Shown: positions 8,700-14,759 of the stretch, one piece after another
Numbering within the stretch: the stretch's first letter is position 1
How the letters are laid out: each line of letters starts with the position of its first letter
Source of the DNA: a virus
Lineage: Duplodnaviria; Heunggongvirae; Uroviricota; Caudoviricetes
Reading direction: 5' to 3' (one strand)
Virus record (IMG/VR): IMGVR_UViG_3300043119_000443
DNA: 14,869 nt
Translations under genes and position numbers: made by a program
Notes under the pieces: generated by a model
Told to the model about the DNA's origin: nothing
Seen by the model: only the letters and a program-made list of their open reading frames with translations
Databases searched by the model: none

Positions 8700-9612
8700 A
8701 GGGTAGGGGGCCGTCACCCTCACAACTGGGGGCGGTCACCCCGTCTTAACGAGTTGGGCGGCGTTTAGGTTAATTGGCGTGGAGCACTAACTTACCGTAT
8801 CCCCCCTAATCGCTCCGTGGCGGCGGGGCTCCCGATTAGGGTTACTGTCCCCGTATAAGTTAGGGTATCCATCCCCTAATTAGCATATTAGGGTTTATAA
8901 TAGGGTGCCAATCCCCTAATCACGATAATGTGATATCCTAATATTTTCTCAGCACTTTAAGATGAGGAGAAGGTTAATAGGTAGTGATTGTCAAAAAAGC
9001 CCATAAATAAAGGATAAAAAGCCCCTTTTTCAACCTCGCATTGGCCGTGGTAGGGTGGAAGGTTAATGGCGCGTCGGCTGTTAAGCTTAAGGCCGAGGGG
9101 GACTTGCTCTAATTAGGCTTAACGTCGTATAACTTAAAATTAACCCTAACAGCCCGTATAACCTCATTTATAATAGCTATAATTAACCTTAACGGGCTAT
9201 AAATTAAGGTTAATTTAGCCTATTAGGGTTAATTTTCGACGAGGCCACGGGGGACTTCAAGGCTGTTAAGGTTAACAGCTCTTGTTTTTCATGGTAACCT
9301 TAACACATATTCGGCGATTAGCACAAAATTAACCTTAACAGGCTATTAAGGTTAATGGCGTTAAGGTTAATGCAGGCCGAGGGGGACTTCAAGGCCACAG
9401 GGGACTTCAAGGTTAACAGGCCAGAGGGGACTTCAAGGTTAATTAGTAGTAAATCCGAGGCGGCGGCTGTCATTAATGGGCCGTTAACCTTAACGCGTTA
9501 ACCTTAACAGGGCGGTAAGGTTAACAGGCTGTTAAGGTTAATGGCGTGTTAAGGTTAATGGGCATTAACTATAAACGGCTGTTAAGGTTAACCGGCGGCG
9601 GCGCGTTAACCA
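8700..9612. repeat. Non-coding AT-rich array of TTAA(GG/CC)TTAA units with GGGGACTTCAAGG and ATCCCCTAAT repeats
   Basis: About 900 bp with no ORF; chains such as GGTTAA-caggctg-TTAAGGTTAA-tggcgtg-TTAAGGTTAA (9519-9558). Confidence 0.9.
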
Positions 9613-9783: not shown

Positions 9784-9830
9784 TGTATGCCATAGACCCG
9801 GACGTTATGCAATAGCTATTTTGCATTATT
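9784..9830 (-). promoter_or_regulatory. sigma70-type promoter (TTGCAT 9812-9807), truncated copy of the cassette left arm
   Basis: TATGCAATAGCTATTTTGCATTATT identical to 10756-10780. Confidence 0.6.
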
Positions 9831-9832
9831 CC

Positions 9833-9873
9833 AAAAAAAATTGCTCGCCCCGCGCATCATGGCGGGGCGAGCA
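9833..9873 (-). terminator. Rho-independent terminator
   Basis: 12-bp stem TGCTCGCCCCGC/GCGGGGCGAGCA followed by an A and T8 on the minus strand. Confidence 0.85.
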
Positions 9874-10373: not shown

Positions 10374-10640
10374 CTAGGCCTCCTTCAGAAAGTAATACAT
10401 TGCCAGAGTGCAGCCGAGTCGCGGCGCTTCCGGGCAGATAAGCGCAACCTGATGGGCGTGAGCAAAATAGTGCTCTTCCTCTTCGTCCATATGCGCGGGC
10501 GCTCCGGCGTCGATGCGAGCGATGAAGGCATCCGCTGCGGCGATATCTGCGTCAGACAGGCCTTCCGGGTCATCGTTGAAGAAATAGCAGGCCCAATGCG
10601 CGGGGGCGGTGGCGTCGATATTGATCAGGTCGCGGCTCAT
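10374..10640 (-). CDS. Acidic hypothetical protein, 88 aa (WACYFFNDDPEGLSDAD motif)
   Basis: SD ACGGAG, ATG 10640. Confidence 0.8.
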   Translation of the reverse strand: MSRDLINIDATAPAHWACYFFNDDPEGLSDADIAAADAFIARIDAGAPAHMDEEEEHYFAHAHQVALICPEAPRLGCTLAMYYFLKEA

Positions 10641-10664
10641 GATTCTGTCTCCGTTTTTTTTTGG

Positions 10665-10727
10665 TCGAGAGAGGGAAACCGCCGGGGCTTCGGGGGGTAG
10701 GAAGCTTGTCCCGTTTCCCTCTCTCGA
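10665..10727. repeat. 15-bp perfect inverted repeat forming a 5'-UTR hairpin
   Basis: TCGAGAGAGGGAAAC (10665-10679) / GTTTCCCTCTCTCGA (10713-10727). Confidence 0.85.
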
Positions 10728-10777
10728 TACGCAAGACATAGCACGACTGGCGGAGTATGCAATAGCTATTTTGCATT

Positions 10778-10793
10778 ATTACAAATTTGTAAT
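10778..10793. promoter_or_regulatory. Palindromic operator ATTACAAATTTGTAAT (copy 1)
   Basis: Perfect 16-bp palindrome between divergent -35 boxes. Confidence 0.8.
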
Positions 10794-10808
10794 GTTGCAT
10801 TTTTCTTC

Positions 10809-10837
10809 TTGACAGGCTCGGATTTTTGTGATATAAT
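10809..10837 (+). promoter_or_regulatory. Consensus sigma70 promoter TTGACA-N17-TATAAT, antisense to the genes
   Basis: Exact consensus. Confidence 0.85.
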
Positions 10838-10911
10838 GGATTGACGACCTATTTTTGCCCGTTAACGAGTTGTTAACCTTAATAGGCTGTTAAGGTTAAC
10901 GCCGCGCCACG

Positions 10912-10947
10912 AAAAATTAACCATGCCAGTGCGAAACTGGCATGGTT
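10912..10947 (-). terminator. Terminator hairpin AACCATGCCAG/CTGGCATGGTT + AATTTTT
   Basis: Directly after the stop at 10955. Confidence 0.7.
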
Positions 10948-10953
10948 CTTGCA
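10938..10953 (+). promoter_or_regulatory. sigma54-type motif TGGCATGGTTCTTGCA
   Basis: Consensus match in the hairpin arm. Confidence 0.55.
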
Positions 10954-10954
10954 T

Positions 10955-11113
10955 TCATAGCAGTCGGCGTTTTCGCTTGTCCTTAACCCAGCCTCGCATG
11001 GGTTGCGGCGCTTTTACAGCTTTCATTAACCCTGCCAATGGGTTGCGCTTTCGTCGGCGTTTTACGAACAATTTCACGGAAGTTTGGGGAGGCTTTCGCC
11101 TCCCCTCACTCAC
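10955..11113 (-). CDS. Possible very basic 52-aa protein (..KRRRKRNPLAG..KRKRRLL)
   Basis: GTG overlapping the upstream TAG; stop abuts the cassette A terminator. Confidence 0.45.
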   Translation of the reverse strand: MSEGRRKPPQTSVKLFVKRRRKRNPLAGLMKAVKAPQPMRGWVKDKRKRRLL

Positions 11114-11379
11114 TAGGCCGTGATCGAATTCCCTTCGTGCTTGCCTGCCGCGATCTCTGCGGCGGTCTGGTCCGCCAGCGCCTTCAGGGCGTCCGCAGCG
11201 CCGACATAGTCGCGCGCCTTGAACTTCTTCCCAGTGAGCGCCGCAGCCGTGTCCATCATGGCTTTCGGGGTGTATGCACGGTTGACCTTCATCCCGGTTT
11301 TTGCGTAGAGGCGCAGCGCCGAGGCGATGGCGACACACTGGTAAACCGAGACTGCGGTAGAGCCTGAAAACATGGTCAT
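11113..11379 (-). CDS. Phage hypothetical protein, 88 aa (ALRLYAKTGMKVNRAYTP motif)
   Basis: SD ACGGAG, promoter from cassette B. Confidence 0.85.
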   Translation of the reverse strand: MTMFSGSTAVSVYQCVAIASALRLYAKTGMKVNRAYTPKAMMDTAAALTGKKFKARDYVGAADALKALADQTAAEIAAGKHEGNSITA

Positions 11380-11431
11380 TGGTCGTTCTCCGTTCGTTGT
11401 TGATGCACTAGAGATAGCACATCCATCGGCA

Positions 11432-11630
11432 TATGCAATAACTATTTTGCATTATTACAAATTTGTAATGTTGCATTTTTCCTATTGACCCGGTCCGGCT
11501 TTTATGGTATGATGGAATGACGACCTATTTTTTCGCGTTAACGACTTATTAACCTTAATGGCGTGTTAAGGTTAACGCCGCGAGGCTAAAAATTAACCGT
11601 GCCTCCCTTTCGGGTGGCACGGTTCTTGCA
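11432..11630. repeat. ~200-bp cassette, copy B
   Basis: Operator 11454-11469; TTGACC-17-TATGAT 11485-11513; TTAA cluster 11538-11576; hairpin 11595-11624; TGGCACGGTTCTTGCA 11615-11630. Confidence 0.92.
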
Positions 11631-11870
11631 TTACCCCTGCGGGTTCGGCTTGTACTCGCCGACCGGACCACTGTAGAGCAGTTGGAGCACTCCCGCGCCA
11701 TTGTGGCGCGTCAGGTACACGCTGCACATATCGACGCCGTTTGCCTCATACAGCCGCACCTCGACAGCGCCTTGCCATGACGCGGCGCGCGTCGTGAGGC
11801 CCGAGGATTTATGGCCGAGGCGGGAAGCTTCCGTGCGTCCGCCCTGAACCGTTCCGCGAAAGTGAGCCAT
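11631..11870 (-). CDS. Phage hypothetical protein, 79 aa (MAHFRGTVQG motif)
   Basis: SD ACGGAG; stop abuts cassette B. Confidence 0.85.
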   Translation of the reverse strand: MAHFRGTVQGGRTEASRLGHKSSGLTTRAASWQGAVEVRLYEANGVDMCSVYLTRHNGAGVLQLLYSGPVGEYKPNPQG

Positions 11871-11918
11871 TTTCTATTCTCCGTTTTCCGGGGGCGTTCA
11901 TCGCCTCCCATGCGTGTA

Positions 11919-11987
11919 GGTATCGCATATCCGGCCAATGCAGTCAACAGAATAATGCACACATTACAAATTTGTAATGTGTGCATT
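11919..11987 (-). promoter_or_regulatory. sigma70-type promoter TTGACT-17-GATACC with a 34-bp perfect palindromic operator (11954-11987)
   Basis: AATGCACACATTACAAATTTGTAATGTGTGCATT. Confidence 0.75.
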
Positions 11988-11997
11988 TTCCGCTTGA

Positions 11998-12258
11998 CTA
12001 ATAGTCGGCGATCTTGTCCGCCTCGCGTTCGAGAAAAATCATCTGCACAGGCGTCAAGCGGTGGTCGCCTTGGCCGCTTCCGTTGTCGTCCAGAATGCCC
12101 ATCATAAGCGCCACGGTGAGGCTAGACGAGTGTTTCCCGTTCGGGTCGGAGAAGCATACGAACCAGCGATTCCCGTCCTCCGGACCCATGTCCGTGCATT
12201 CGAAAATCACGAGCGAGTGACCCTTCGCGATCACTTTGTCATTGCGTCCCAGTTTCAT
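11998..12258 (-). CDS. Hypothetical protein, 86 aa
   Basis: SD GGAG, TAAT-ATG coupling. Confidence 0.8.
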   Translation of the reverse strand: MKLGRNDKVIAKGHSLVIFECTDMGPEDGNRWFVCFSDPNGKHSSSLTVALMMGILDDNGSGQGDHRLTPVQMIFLEREADKIADY

Positions 12259-12259
12259 A

Positions 12260-12358
12260 TTAACGGCTCCATTTTTTGTGGAAGCGAACCGCGCAAATGC
12301 GGTTGCTGAGTTCTTCCGAAGGGAAGAAGAAAAAGACGATTTTCAGAACCGTTTCCAT
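12260..12358 (-). CDS. Small protein, 32 aa (METVLKIVFFFFPSEELSNRICAVRFHKKWSR)
   Basis: SD ACGGAG and cassette C promoter; below the ORF-track cutoff. Confidence 0.6.
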   Translation of the reverse strand: METVLKIVFFFFPSEELSNRICAVRFHKKWSR

Positions 12359-12405
12359 TTGGTCGCTCCGTTGTTGATGACCCTTTATCGCATAGGTTGG
12401 CCGCA

Positions 12406-12614
12406 TATGCAATAGGATAATTGCATTATTACAAATTTGTAATGTTGCATTTTTCCTCTTGACCCAACCGGATTTATCTGGTAAAATGGATTGACGACCT
12501 ATTTTTCCGCGTTAATGAGTTGTTAACCTTAACAGAATGTGGCGCGCTGTTAAGGTTAACAAATCGAGGCGAAAAATTAACCATGCCAACCGCGGGGCTG
12601 GCATGGTTCTTGCT
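12406..12614. repeat. ~200-bp cassette, copy C
   Basis: Operator 12428-12443; TTGACC-17-TAAAAT 12459-12487; TTAA cluster 12512-12560 (N17 spacer); hairpin 12579-12608; TGGCATGGTTCTTGCT 12599-12614. Confidence 0.92.
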
Positions 12615-12928
12615 TAGGCGTCCACGGGCTCGGGATCGTCCGGCGATTCGAAGAATTCGCCAAGCTCAACAAATAGGACCGTGCAGCCCTGATCATATCT
12701 GATCATGTCGCCATAGTCCGAACGGCTTGAACGCTCGCCAGTGAGTCCAGCTTCGCGCCTAGCAGCCTTGGCGACACGCGCGCGACGCTTGCGCCATGCT
12801 TCGGGCGAATACTGATCGCCATCGCTCCGGCGATGTTCGCAGCGGATAATGCCGCGACGAACCCAGCAATAATTCGCCTCGCCTCCAAAGGTGTCAGTGA
12901 ATTCCCAGCGGTAAAGATGTTCGGCCAT
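12614..12928 (-). CDS. Phage hypothetical protein, 104 aa (EFTDTFGGEANYCWV motif)
   Basis: SD GAGGA, ATG 12928; stop abuts cassette C. Confidence 0.85.
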   Translation of the reverse strand: MAEHLYRWEFTDTFGGEANYCWVRRGIIRCEHRRSDGDQYSPEAWRKRRARVAKAARREAGLTGERSSRSDYGDMIRYDQGCTVLFVELGEFFESPDDPEPVDA

Positions 12929-12930
12929 TG

Positions 12931-13095
12931 TCAATCCTCAAAAAGCAATTCTGCGAATTCGTCGCGCGGCTGTTTGGACGCTTTCTCTTCGTCGCGAATC
13001 TCTTGACAGTATTTCTCGACGATTTTCAACTGACGAAGAATCTCGTCCATCGTCGGCTTTCGGCCATGAAGATAAAGGCTGTTTTCGGGGGCCAT
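12931..13095 (-). CDS. Small charged protein, 54 aa (MAPENSLYLHGRKPTMDEILRQLK...LLFED)
   Basis: TAATG coupling; fills the gap exactly. Confidence 0.6.
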   Translation of the reverse strand: MAPENSLYLHGRKPTMDEILRQLKIVEKYCQEIRDEEKASKQPRDEFAELLFED

Positions 13096-13277
13096 TAGAA
13101 GGTCACCACGACGGTCAGGACAGCGACGGCGACGAAGAGCGCCACGGCGATGAAAGCGAAGTGATCGCGCTTCACGACGGCTTTAGGAGCCGTTTCGAGC
13201 GTGATGGGCGTGCGGCGCTCAACTCCGGCCCATTCGGCGCGGATTTGTTCGTCTGTCTGGCGGTAGTTGATTTGCAT
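13095..13277 (-). CDS. Small protein with C-terminal transmembrane anchor, 60 aa
   Basis: SD ACGGAG; FAFIAVALFVAVAVLTVVVTF tail. Confidence 0.75.
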   Translation of the reverse strand: MQINYRQTDEQIRAEWAGVERRTPITLETAPKAVVKRDHFAFIAVALFVAVAVLTVVVTF

Positions 13278-13287
13278 TTGCGTGCTC

Positions 13288-13429
13288 CGTTGTTGATGCA
13301 CTAGAGATAGCACATCCATCGGCATATGCAATAGCCTTTTTTGCATTTTTCTGCGTTTCGAACATTACAAATTTGTAATGTAGAAAAGTGCATTATGCGC
13401 TTGCGTTTCTAGAATAGGTGTGGCATTGT
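13288..13429. promoter_or_regulatory. Divergent sigma70-type promoters (left TTGCAT 13331-13326; right TTGCGT-17-CATTGT 13401-13429) flanking a 20-bp palindromic operator (13362-13381)
   Basis: ACATTACAAATTTGTAATGT; 13288-13333 is identical to 11395-11440. Confidence 0.75.
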
Positions 13430-13456: not shown

Positions 13457-13699
13457 ATGACCTCGCTCTGGACCAAATATAACGACGCCACTCAGCCCGG
13501 CCCTTCGGCCACTAAGGAAGCGATTGCCGAGGTTGCCGCGGCGCTGAACTACGCGGGCAAGGAACCGCCGCTCTATGTCATGAAGCGCGCCCAACGCCTC
13601 GCCCAGATGAAGGGCCAGTCGATCCGGGAGTCAAATTTCCGCTACTGGTTCGATCAAGCGGTTAACAACTTAGCGGCCCAATTCGGGGTCGCTAAGTAA
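13457..13699 (+). CDS. Hypothetical helical protein, 80 aa, divergently transcribed
   Basis: SD ACGGAG, ATG 13457, followed by a terminator. Confidence 0.8.
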   Translation: MTSLWTKYNDATQPGPSATKEAIAEVAAALNYAGKEPPLYVMKRAQRLAQMKGQSIRESNFRYWFDQAVNNLAAQFGVAK

Positions 13700-13714
13700 G
13701 ACCCTGTTAAGGCT

Positions 13715-13741
13715 AAGCCCCCTCTTACTGAGGGGGCTTTT
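13715..13741 (+). terminator. Rho-independent terminator
   Basis: AAGCCCCCTC-TTACT-GAGGGGGCTT then TT. Confidence 0.75.
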
Positions 13742-13746
13742 GCTTA

Positions 13747-13791
13747 TGCAATTAGCGTGCCAACATGGGTGCCCATGCAAGGCCCATGCCA
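13747..13791 (-). promoter_or_regulatory. Two tandem sigma54-type promoters TGGCACGCTAATTGCA (13747-13762) and TGGCATGGGCCTTGCA (13776-13791)
   Basis: Both near-perfect consensus. Confidence 0.7.
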
Positions 13792-13799
13792 GAGGGCAC

Positions 13800-14350
13800 A
13801 TGGTATGGTTAATTTATTGTGCTGTTTTGTTAACCATACTTTCTTGGTTAATGCTGCATTAAAGTTAACAACAGGGGTGTATTTATTAACCATACTTTCT
13901 TGGTTAATTTTTTAGGGTTATTCATTAACCATACCAGAATTTACAGATTTTTAACCTTAACAGAATGTGTCTTTCTGTTAAGGTTAACCCACTGCTAAGC
14001 CCCCTCTATTTAAGCCCCCTATGTAGAGCATGGTTAATGCAAATTAACCTTACTATGTGCTACTGTATGCTAATCTCTTATTAACCTTAACAACATATGT
14101 ATGCTACTATGTATTAAGGTTAACATATGTATAATATTATTAATAATTAATAATAATTTAATTTTTTATTAATTTTATTGATTATTAACCTTAACAAGCT
14201 GTTAACCTTATCGGTTAGGGTTTTGTTAACCCTAACGGGGGTATGCCCCAATCTGGGTCAATTAACCTTACTACGCCACTCATTATACGCATGTGCCAGA
14301 CCCACCTTTTCGACCGGGGGTACTTATAATTAAGCCCCGCCTCTTATAAC
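13800..14350. repeat. Second AT-rich TTAA(GG/CC)TTAA array with a 50-nt pure-AT tract; candidate origin or genome terminus
   Basis: No G/C at 14130-14179; direct repeat TTAACCATACTTTCTTGGTTAAT x2; TAAGCCCC repeats. Confidence 0.85.
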
Positions 14351-14682: not shown

Positions 14683-14759
14683 GGGCGGGTAGCTCAGTTG
14701 GGAAGAGCGCGCGATCGATAATCGCGAGGTCGCGGGTTCGATTCCCGCCCCGCCTACCA
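14683..14759 (+). tRNA. tRNA-Ile (anticodon GAU) with encoded CCA
   Basis: Cloverleaf: acceptor GGGCGGG/CCCGCCT, D-stem GCTC/GAGC, anticodon stem CGCGA/TCGCG with GAT at 14717-14719, T-loop TTCGATT, ends ACCA. Confidence 0.95.

Follow-up and report, generated by a model that had tools for sequence, protein, structure and literature searches.

Predicted back-to-back promoter cassettes with backward-facing sigma70-type promoters between the small early genes of a siphophage

The early genes and their intergenic cassettes

The stretch of DNA analysed here (14,869 nucleotides, hereafter the window) corresponds to positions 392-15260 in an IMG/VR virus record of 78,869 bp, whose GC content is 59% and whose ends overlap by 127 bp. 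Annotation identified the phage as a siphovirus. Besides a tape measure protein it encodes a portal and a large terminase, together with a family-A-type DNA polymerase and a primase-polymerase/helicase protein. Homologs of the portal occur among Bordetella, Stenotrophomonas and YuA/PaMx74-type Pseudomonas phages; the match list also contains many phages of Caulobacter and Brevundimonas. The host of this 79-kb siphophage probably belongs to the Caulobacterales. Leftward from position 13280 the window holds small minus-strand genes, each with an RBS and with GC3 values of 0.60-0.79 (0.56 and 0.59 in two short ones); those adjoining the cassettes described below are annotated only as DUF6926 or as PHROGs of unknown function. 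A tRNA-Ile (GAT) gene on the plus strand (14683-14759) lies at the right edge of the second of two regions rich in TTAA boxes.

Between the small genes lie three intergenic control units, cassettes A (10756-10954), B (11432-11630) and C (12406-12614), which were delimited by repeat family D1 and by alignments A1 and A2. They are copies of one repeat of about 200 nt and are 65-82% identical. Alignment A2 comprises 10 distinct cassettes from three genomes, namely the present phage and two close relatives. Two truncated copies were also observed: cassette D (11945-11998) retains an extended 34-nt palindrome and a TTGACT remnant, with -10 element, boxes and terminator absent, and cassette F (9806-9873) has a gene-facing promoter box and a separate strong terminator, with palindrome and backward promoter absent.

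Each full cassette in the window carries a strong sigma70-type promoter on the plus strand, facing away from the gene that it precedes: TTGACA-17-TATAAT in A (10809-10837; 12 of 12 consensus positions), TTGACC-17-TATGAT in B (11485-11513; 10 of 12) and TTGACC-17-TAAAAT in C (12459-12487; 10 of 12), which rank best, fourth and fifth in the promoter scan of the window. All three show what defines this promoter type (both hexamers, a spacing of 16-18 bp and, optionally, a TGn), with 17 bp and a TGn in every case. A sequence-only reading of this locus had pointed to three strong sigma70 promoters that oppose the neighbouring genes and have no gene after them, and both statements proved correct, with the qualification that a plus-strand gene judged to be real lies at 13457-13699, farther right than all three. 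The plus-strand ORFs 3' of the promoters lack an RBS and have GC3 values of 0.43-0.57. A small ORF within the plus-strand RNA was considered and rejected, as its reading frame is not the same between the copies and neither an RBS nor a GC3 signal is present.

Across the 10 cassettes, mean pairwise identity is 0.91 in the -35 element, 0.79 in the -10 element and 0.62 in the spacer, while the 17-bp spacing and the TGn are constant throughout. Judged by this pattern, in which hexamers and spacing are kept while the spacer drifts, the backward promoter looks genuine and is under selection; its activity on the plus strand and its start sites are predicted. As promoters A, B and C occupy homologous positions of one repeat, they are not independent and represent one invention copied three times.

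Sixteen bp upstream of the backward promoter lies a perfect, operator-like palindrome, ATTACAAATTTGTAAT (10778-10793 in A). Further copies were located at 11454-11469, 12428-12443, 11963-11978 and 13364-13379, giving five in the genome, all within the window. On the other side of the palindrome, a weaker, putative gene-facing promoter on the minus strand (TTGCAT, 13 nt, GCTATGTC; 10735-10762) would drive the gene that starts at 10640. We take this promoter to be of the alphaproteobacterial type, and a comparable leader, TTGAC...CCTATGCGA...GGTCATCAACAACGGAG, is present in Caulobacter jumbo phages.

Two hairpin elements at the DNA level

The backward promoter of cassette A would yield a non-coding transcript of about 112 nt (10844-10955, plus strand) if it ended at the second of two hairpins, as judged from the -10 position, the folds and the lack of a coding signal; its counterparts in B (11520-11632) and C (12494-12616) likewise have predicted ends on both sides. 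The element GACGACCTATTTTT, previously proposed as a conserved start, was found three times in the 78.9-kb genome, always on the plus strand, 6-7 nt past the -10 boxes of A, B and C, and nowhere else. Among the aligned cassettes it is kept in seven and replaced by unrelated sequence in the other three. The transcribed starts fall into two classes without relation to each other, GGATTGACGACCTATTTTT and GAGGCTAAAAGCATTTTTT. Distant phages, too, have a GACCTAT core behind their away-facing promoter, and this core and the conserved 5' sequence could mark the 5' end of a functional RNA.

The sequence-only reading had further described two hairpins in each copy and had suggested a family of homologous small RNAs. 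The plus-strand regions of about 112-123 nt indeed fold as described, with -38.6, -39.2 and -48.4 kcal/mol (z = -5.0, -4.2 and -5.0). The minus strands of the same regions gave z-scores of -4.4, -5.1 and -6.7, and since both strands fold alike, these values say nothing about the strand that is used. A scan of the window against Rfam 15 returned no family, the region 10800-12620 giving only chance miRNA-type matches well under the threshold (e.g. 23.6 bits where the threshold is 95). Of the proposed RNA family, the conserved promoters and the absence of a following gene stood, while the two hairpins turned out to be a DNA site and a predicted terminator of the opposite strand.

Hairpin 1 corresponds to a cluster of CtrA-type boxes at 10862-10899 (B, 11538-11575; C, 12512-12559), which contains TTAA-N7-TTAA twice, including TTAACCTTAA-N7-TTAAGGTTAA. 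The inner gap is N17 in copy C versus N7 in A and B, corresponding to one extra helical turn. TTAA-N7-TTAA occurs 13 times in the window against an expectation of 0.12; five of these sites lie within cassettes, and all 13 fall outside called genes. Half of the hairpin is itself the unit of dispersed repeats (families D2-D6), which is found in head-to-tail 17-bp arrays at 9470-9600 and in clusters at 9100-9360 and 13700-14240, and nearly all genomic copies of the unit fall in those non-coding stretches. The exact 27-bp inverted pair, which recurs in Caulobacter jumbo phages, is frequent in Caulobacter phage CcrSC and in a second 322-kb phage, where its copies are positioned after terminators and upstream of promoters. 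In searches of GenBank phage DNA, the CtrA-box part alone matched Brevundimonas and Caulobacter phages. The arms of hairpin 1 are invariant across the 10 cassettes. Taken together, the sequence points to a protein-binding DNA site, an inverted pair of CtrA-type boxes with putative CtrA binding. As shown by Mascolo et al. 2022 (PMC9437464), CtrA binds and regulates phage promoters with such sites.

Two other readings of the repeat unit were considered. A T3/T7-like phage RNA polymerase promoter in TTAACCTTAAC was rejected, given that this motif is found in either orientation and forms part of 17-bp arrays; a search of the genome for PF00940 gave no match, a weak negative, as the control search also matched nowhere. 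An iteron-type origin built from TTAAGGTTAA units is unnecessary to explain the cassettes and may apply to the large arrays. In the gap at 8.7-9.6 kb (9242-9442 and 8861-8927), four copies of AGGCCACGGGGGACTTCAAGG and two of TAGGGT.CCA.TCCCCTAAT were observed adjoining the 17-bp TTAAGGTTAA arrays.

Hairpin 2 lies at 10911-10947, with a stem at 10919-10947 and a T-run on the minus strand; its equivalents span 11587-11624 in B and 12571-12608 in C, and the 5' arm carries the CtrA half-site-like TTAACCAT. On the minus strand it combines a GC-rich hairpin with an immediate U-run located after a stop codon, i.e. the features of an intrinsic terminator, and a terminator scan called the hairpins of A and C on this strand only. 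The minus-strand run of five to six T is kept in all 10 cassettes. The tails on the plus strand vary: A, B and C have CTTGCATT, the ortholog of A has CAACTCCCG, and TTCTTCC or CCTTTCC is seen elsewhere, and the U-tract that is conserved on the own strand behind the 3' stem-loop of an sRNA was not found there. Folding energies are uniform on the minus strand (-18.7 to -23.1 kcal/mol) and range from -12.9 to -22.2 kcal/mol on the plus strand. We conclude from these sequence features that hairpin 2 is the predicted terminator of the preceding leftward gene.

The stem itself is maintained, as four to five different stems occur among the 10 cassettes, with the outer nine pairs 97% paired and two pairs changed on both sides. 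Copy B has AACCGTGCC/GGCACGGTT versus AACCATGCC/GGCATGGTT in A and C, which bears out the compensatory change from CAT/ATG to CGT/ACG that had been read from the sequence; the stem works at least equally well on the other strand. In two cassettes, A·C mismatches of the plus strand are G·U pairs on the minus strand, and the reverse applies in one. The CTTGCATT tail of A, B and C has four U in eight positions, so that a discrete RNA of about 110 nt could arise there by partial termination. Hairpin 2 aside, scanning from 10475 to 13249 detected no plus-strand terminator-like site; the first ones beyond the cassettes are located at 13249 (weak) and 13715 (strong).

A sigma54-type -24/-12 motif, TGGCAYGGTTCTTGC, is found on the plus strand at 10938-10952, 11615-11629 and 12599-12613, where it overlaps the 3' arm of hairpin 2. 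With the GG/GC consensus and its spacing, these three sites are predicted promoters, although part of the -24 element is merely the complement of the TTAACCATGCCA arm. The motif occurs nine times in the window against 0.03 expected, three times on the plus strand (within the cassettes) and six times on the minus strand, where four of the six head minus-strand early genes. It is present in the relatives' counterpart of C and absent from the counterpart of A. Two minus-strand motifs (13748-13762 and 13777-13791) lie just past the terminator of the plus-strand gene at 13457-13699; the backward motifs, three on the plus and two on the minus strand, are all perfect and converge on the gene that they follow. 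Directly 3' of the plus-strand motif in A, a 158-nt non-coding stretch (10955-11112) extends to the stop codon of the gene at 11113-11379 and is absent in the ortholog of a 79,283-bp relative. A unit of about 60 nt is present in duplicate (TTAACCC...ATGGGTTGCG and CGGCGTTTT each occur twice), GGGGAGGC and GCCTCCCC form a hairpin, and by its position the stretch is a candidate sigma54-dependent non-coding RNA.

Distribution of the cassette modules

Three to seven cassette copies are present per genome, every one tied to an early-gene boundary. The arms of hairpin 2 and the sigma54 tail are common to A, B and C, and the orthologous positions of the 79,283-bp relative carry other variants, which argues for concerted evolution within a genome and makes the three copies weak as independent evidence; their similarity would thus in part indicate homogenisation inside the present genome. 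Gene content at the cassette borders varies between relatives. At 11631-11870, for example, a phrog_5927 gene (MAHFRGT...) stands in place of an unrelated gene (MTKKHF...) in a close relative (contig L014, from 2842 onward), an exchange that fits cassette-mediated shuffling.

The hairpin elements and the promoter module also occur apart from each other. A block of TTAAGGTTAAC, about 10 nt and AAAAATTAACC, often followed by a hairpin, was found in at least 17 other GC-rich metagenome contigs, with neither the palindrome nor a consensus promoter aimed at the block. As both hairpin elements are present there without the promoter, the hairpins exist independently of it. Within contigs L181-L227, GAAAAATTAACCAT follows TTAAGGTTAAC after about 10 nt, in many even without a subsequent hairpin; the A-run with TTAACCAT may be a binding motif in its own right, besides supplying the T-run of the opposite-strand terminator.

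Conversely, a scan of IMG/VR revealed 14-18-mers of the palindrome in multiple copies in unrelated contigs, among them phages with a GC content of about 46% and with portal and terminase proteins of other families. A constant gap of 12-15 bp in these phages, and of 12-16 bp for the module in general, separates the palindrome from the away-facing TTGACA-17-TAAAAT; towards the gene-facing promoter the distance ranges between 1 and 21 bp. At 28 of 40 distinct palindrome sites the away-facing promoter matches 10-12 of 12 consensus positions, and most of these 28 have no ORF on the away side, the end of a convergent ORF being 36-250 nt off. The RNA following this promoter in the distant phages forms a hairpin of variable sequence and contains no CtrA boxes. 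Judged by this distribution, the conserved element is the backward promoter with its operator, not the RNA. In every contig examined, the away-facing promoters are codirectional with the neighbouring divergent structural block.

Among the cultured phages of the GenBank collection searched, the module of palindrome and back-to-back promoters was found in none, and both near and distant DNA searches with the palindrome-plus-promoter part returned noise only. A scan of bacterial genomes for the palindrome followed by TTGAC gave mostly chance matches in AT-rich genomes. The literature search for the palindrome core ACAAATTTGT retrieved only the unrelated GraR site of Staphylococcus, and a paper on an XRE protein of Caulobacter and phiCbK does not give the letters of its motif. 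When all ORFs were compared by tblastn with the loci of the distant phages (about 1.6-14 kb per contig) in search of a shared palindrome-binding protein, one unrelated small protein was the sole match.

Three Cohaesibacter genomes contain the palindrome TTACAAATTTGTAA once each in an orthologous place (L061:2090, L086:2903 and L107:3790). In the two that were checked (L061 and L107), it lies 11-12 bp upstream of TTGACA, ahead of a class I/II aminotransferase gene, a spacing close to the 12-16 bp seen in the phages, which hints at a host factor that reads the palindrome. In distant phages (L015 and L028, e.g. L015:4540-4570 and L028:6440-6470), the hairpin 3' of the backward promoter is often GGGTGTGACAAATTTGTCACACCC, which shares the core ACAAATTTGT with the operator, so that a related palindrome stands on either side of the promoter, with about 80-90 bp between the two. 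This arrangement in L015 and L028 suggests repression by looping.

Possible roles of the backward promoters

On the whole, we lean towards a back-to-back cassette whose backward promoter would give non-coding antisense or insulating transcription in cis, with CtrA and a protein bound to the operator as its probable gates. Read along the minus strand, the cassette would present the terminator of the preceding gene, the CtrA-type boxes and the back-to-back promoters around the palindromic operator, and may be viewed as two joined modules, a terminator with CtrA boxes, common in Caulobacterales phages, and an operator with back-to-back promoters. The weaker alphaproteobacterial-type promoter would then serve the next gene, and the near-consensus promoter would fire backwards, starting near 10844, 11520 and 12494, passing over the two CtrA boxes (about +19 to +56) before it enters hairpin 2 and the 3' end of the preceding gene. 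As hairpin 2 lacks a good U-tract in the rightward direction, a large share of the transcripts probably extends further as antisense RNA. Antisense RNA produced by read-through had been one of several options raised by the sequence-only reading and fits best. Convergent transcription and RNA duplexes would damp or insulate the preceding early unit in cis, with a palindrome-binding factor and CtrA at +19 to +56 as the presumed switches. With two promoter types aimed at the preceding gene and a terminator that works one way, the most economical interpretation is cis-antisense or convergent transcription.

A more far-reaching version, which we put forward tentatively and with considerable doubt, would see the backward promoters as an undescribed, widespread phage device that is wired to the cell cycle in the present phage. 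In the swarmer cell, the antisense promoter would be held shut by CtrA sitting on +19 to +56, loss of CtrA would free antisense transcription and thereby shut down or insulate the early genes, and the sigma54 promoter would act as a second, signal-dependent backward input.

It seems unlikely to us that the binding or firing of RNA polymerase, and not the RNA, is the function. Acting as a helper, the backward promoter would recruit polymerase or introduce negative supercoils, thereby activating the divergent, weaker promoter on DNA that has just been injected; acting as a sink, it would compete with the gene-facing promoter until the palindrome-binding factor arrives, or titrate the host polymerase. 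The back-to-back geometry around a common palindrome, the gap that is fixed towards the away-facing promoter and variable towards the gene-facing one, and the lack of conservation of the RNA body across phages are consistent with such a role. However, the sigma54 motif pointing in the same direction and the one-directional terminator would be left unexplained, and short untranslated transcripts generate little torque.

Improbable as well are three homologous, discrete, two-hairpin RNAs of about 110 nt that act in trans as regulators, decoys or anti-defence molecules. The strength of the promoters, the conservation of the 5' sequence behind them, the stable folds (z about -4 to -5), the compensatory change in the second stem and the partly U-containing tail of A, B and C would agree with this proposal, as would the distance of 103 nt from the start of the -35 element to the A-run just before hairpin 2, which is found in 8 of the 10 cassettes. 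Against it, no Rfam family was recognised and the minus strand folds equally well or better; stem 1 is invariant and a shared protein-binding site of DNA, and stem 2 terminates the upstream gene, its U-tract being on the opposite strand. Both stems occur elsewhere without the promoter, and the promoter module occurs elsewhere with a quite different RNA. The 5' 'seed' is moreover swapped for unrelated sequence in 3 of 10 cassettes, and a U-tract is entirely missing from the ortholog of A.

We give little credence to the idea that the internal cassettes are evolutionary left-overs, i.e. duplicates of the divergent region at the boundary of the early block in which the backward promoter has no role. 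Boundary cassettes with genes on both sides do exist (13365 in the window and the first cassettes of L015 and L028), and cassettes recombine and homogenise within genomes, yet the backward promoters hold 10-12 of 12 consensus positions while spacers and downstream RNA diverge, unrelated lineages included. As the truncated cassettes D (11964) and F (9806) show that the backward promoter can be lost, its retention elsewhere looks selected. The least likely of the readings weighed here takes the cassettes as a CtrA-gated, transcription-activated origin, by analogy with the Caulobacter chromosomal origin, which contains a strong promoter, or as distal promoters reading through to the gene at 13457 and the plus-strand late block: strong promoters followed directly by CtrA boxes and T/A tracts, the encoded primase-polymerase/helicase protein and DNA polymerase, the lack of listed plus-strand terminator-like sites before the weak one at 13249 and the strong one at 13715, and the codirectionality with the structural block would suit it, but three to seven copies per genome, each at an early-gene boundary, promoters without CtrA boxes in distant phages, and leaders of 0.8-2.6 kb running antisense through genes, which would be unusual, speak against it.

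Lambda OOP and P22 sar are cis-antisense phage RNAs, OOP being single-copy and equipped with its own terminator. The present promoters resemble the OOP type in geometry only, in that a promoter downstream of a gene fires back at it; they differ in that several copies exist, each coupled to an operator and a divergent promoter, and in that no terminator is conserved in their own direction. Antisense transcripts have been mapped in Pseudomonas phages (PMC10914365), among them YuA, a cultured member of the set of portal homologs of the present phage, which has four antisense RNAs with defined starts. No homology of the present cassettes to antisense RNAs of the OOP, sar or YuA type was found.

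A functional parallel is offered by the PeSL elements in the hyperplastic regions of T4-type phages (PMC2839356), which likewise are repeated intergenic cassettes of about 100-200 bp among small early genes whose function is unknown, with a stem-loop to stop transcription arriving from upstream, a promoter of host type that serves the next gene, and variable gene content at their borders. PeSLs have a single promoter that faces the gene (PMC2839356), whereas the strongest promoter of the present cassette faces backwards, and the word 'antisense' is absent from the PeSL paper (Arbiol et al. 2010, PMC2839356). The palindromic operator, the CtrA-type boxes and the sigma54 motif are particular to the present cassette, which resides in a siphovirus of an alphaproteobacterium and not in a T4-type phage. 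The cassette thus works like a PeSL and is not a member of that family.

In alphaproteobacterial 'LPEG' phages, TTAA-N7-TTAA sites cluster in gap regions and between genes, and the related phage vB_BsubS-Delta, placed within the YuA-like group, has a gap region with 30 TTAA repeats (PMC9437464). In the present window, by comparison, boxes are also found inside the region transcribed from a backward orphan promoter, beside terminators; a term search of PMC9437464 did not turn up this arrangement of boxes within a backward transcript.

For the prediction of small RNAs, the locus carries a caution, as palindromic protein sites and terminators of the opposite strand can mimic a well-folded small RNA. 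The design recurs in structurally unrelated phages, so that explaining the backward promoters could explain a common, unannotated feature of early regions. If the preferred reading of gated cis-antisense transcription is true, a lytic phage would time or insulate its first genes with nothing but the host RNA polymerase, an operator and a cell-cycle regulator of the host, and the idea of the CtrA-controlled phage would extend from simple promoter regulation to gated antisense transcription.
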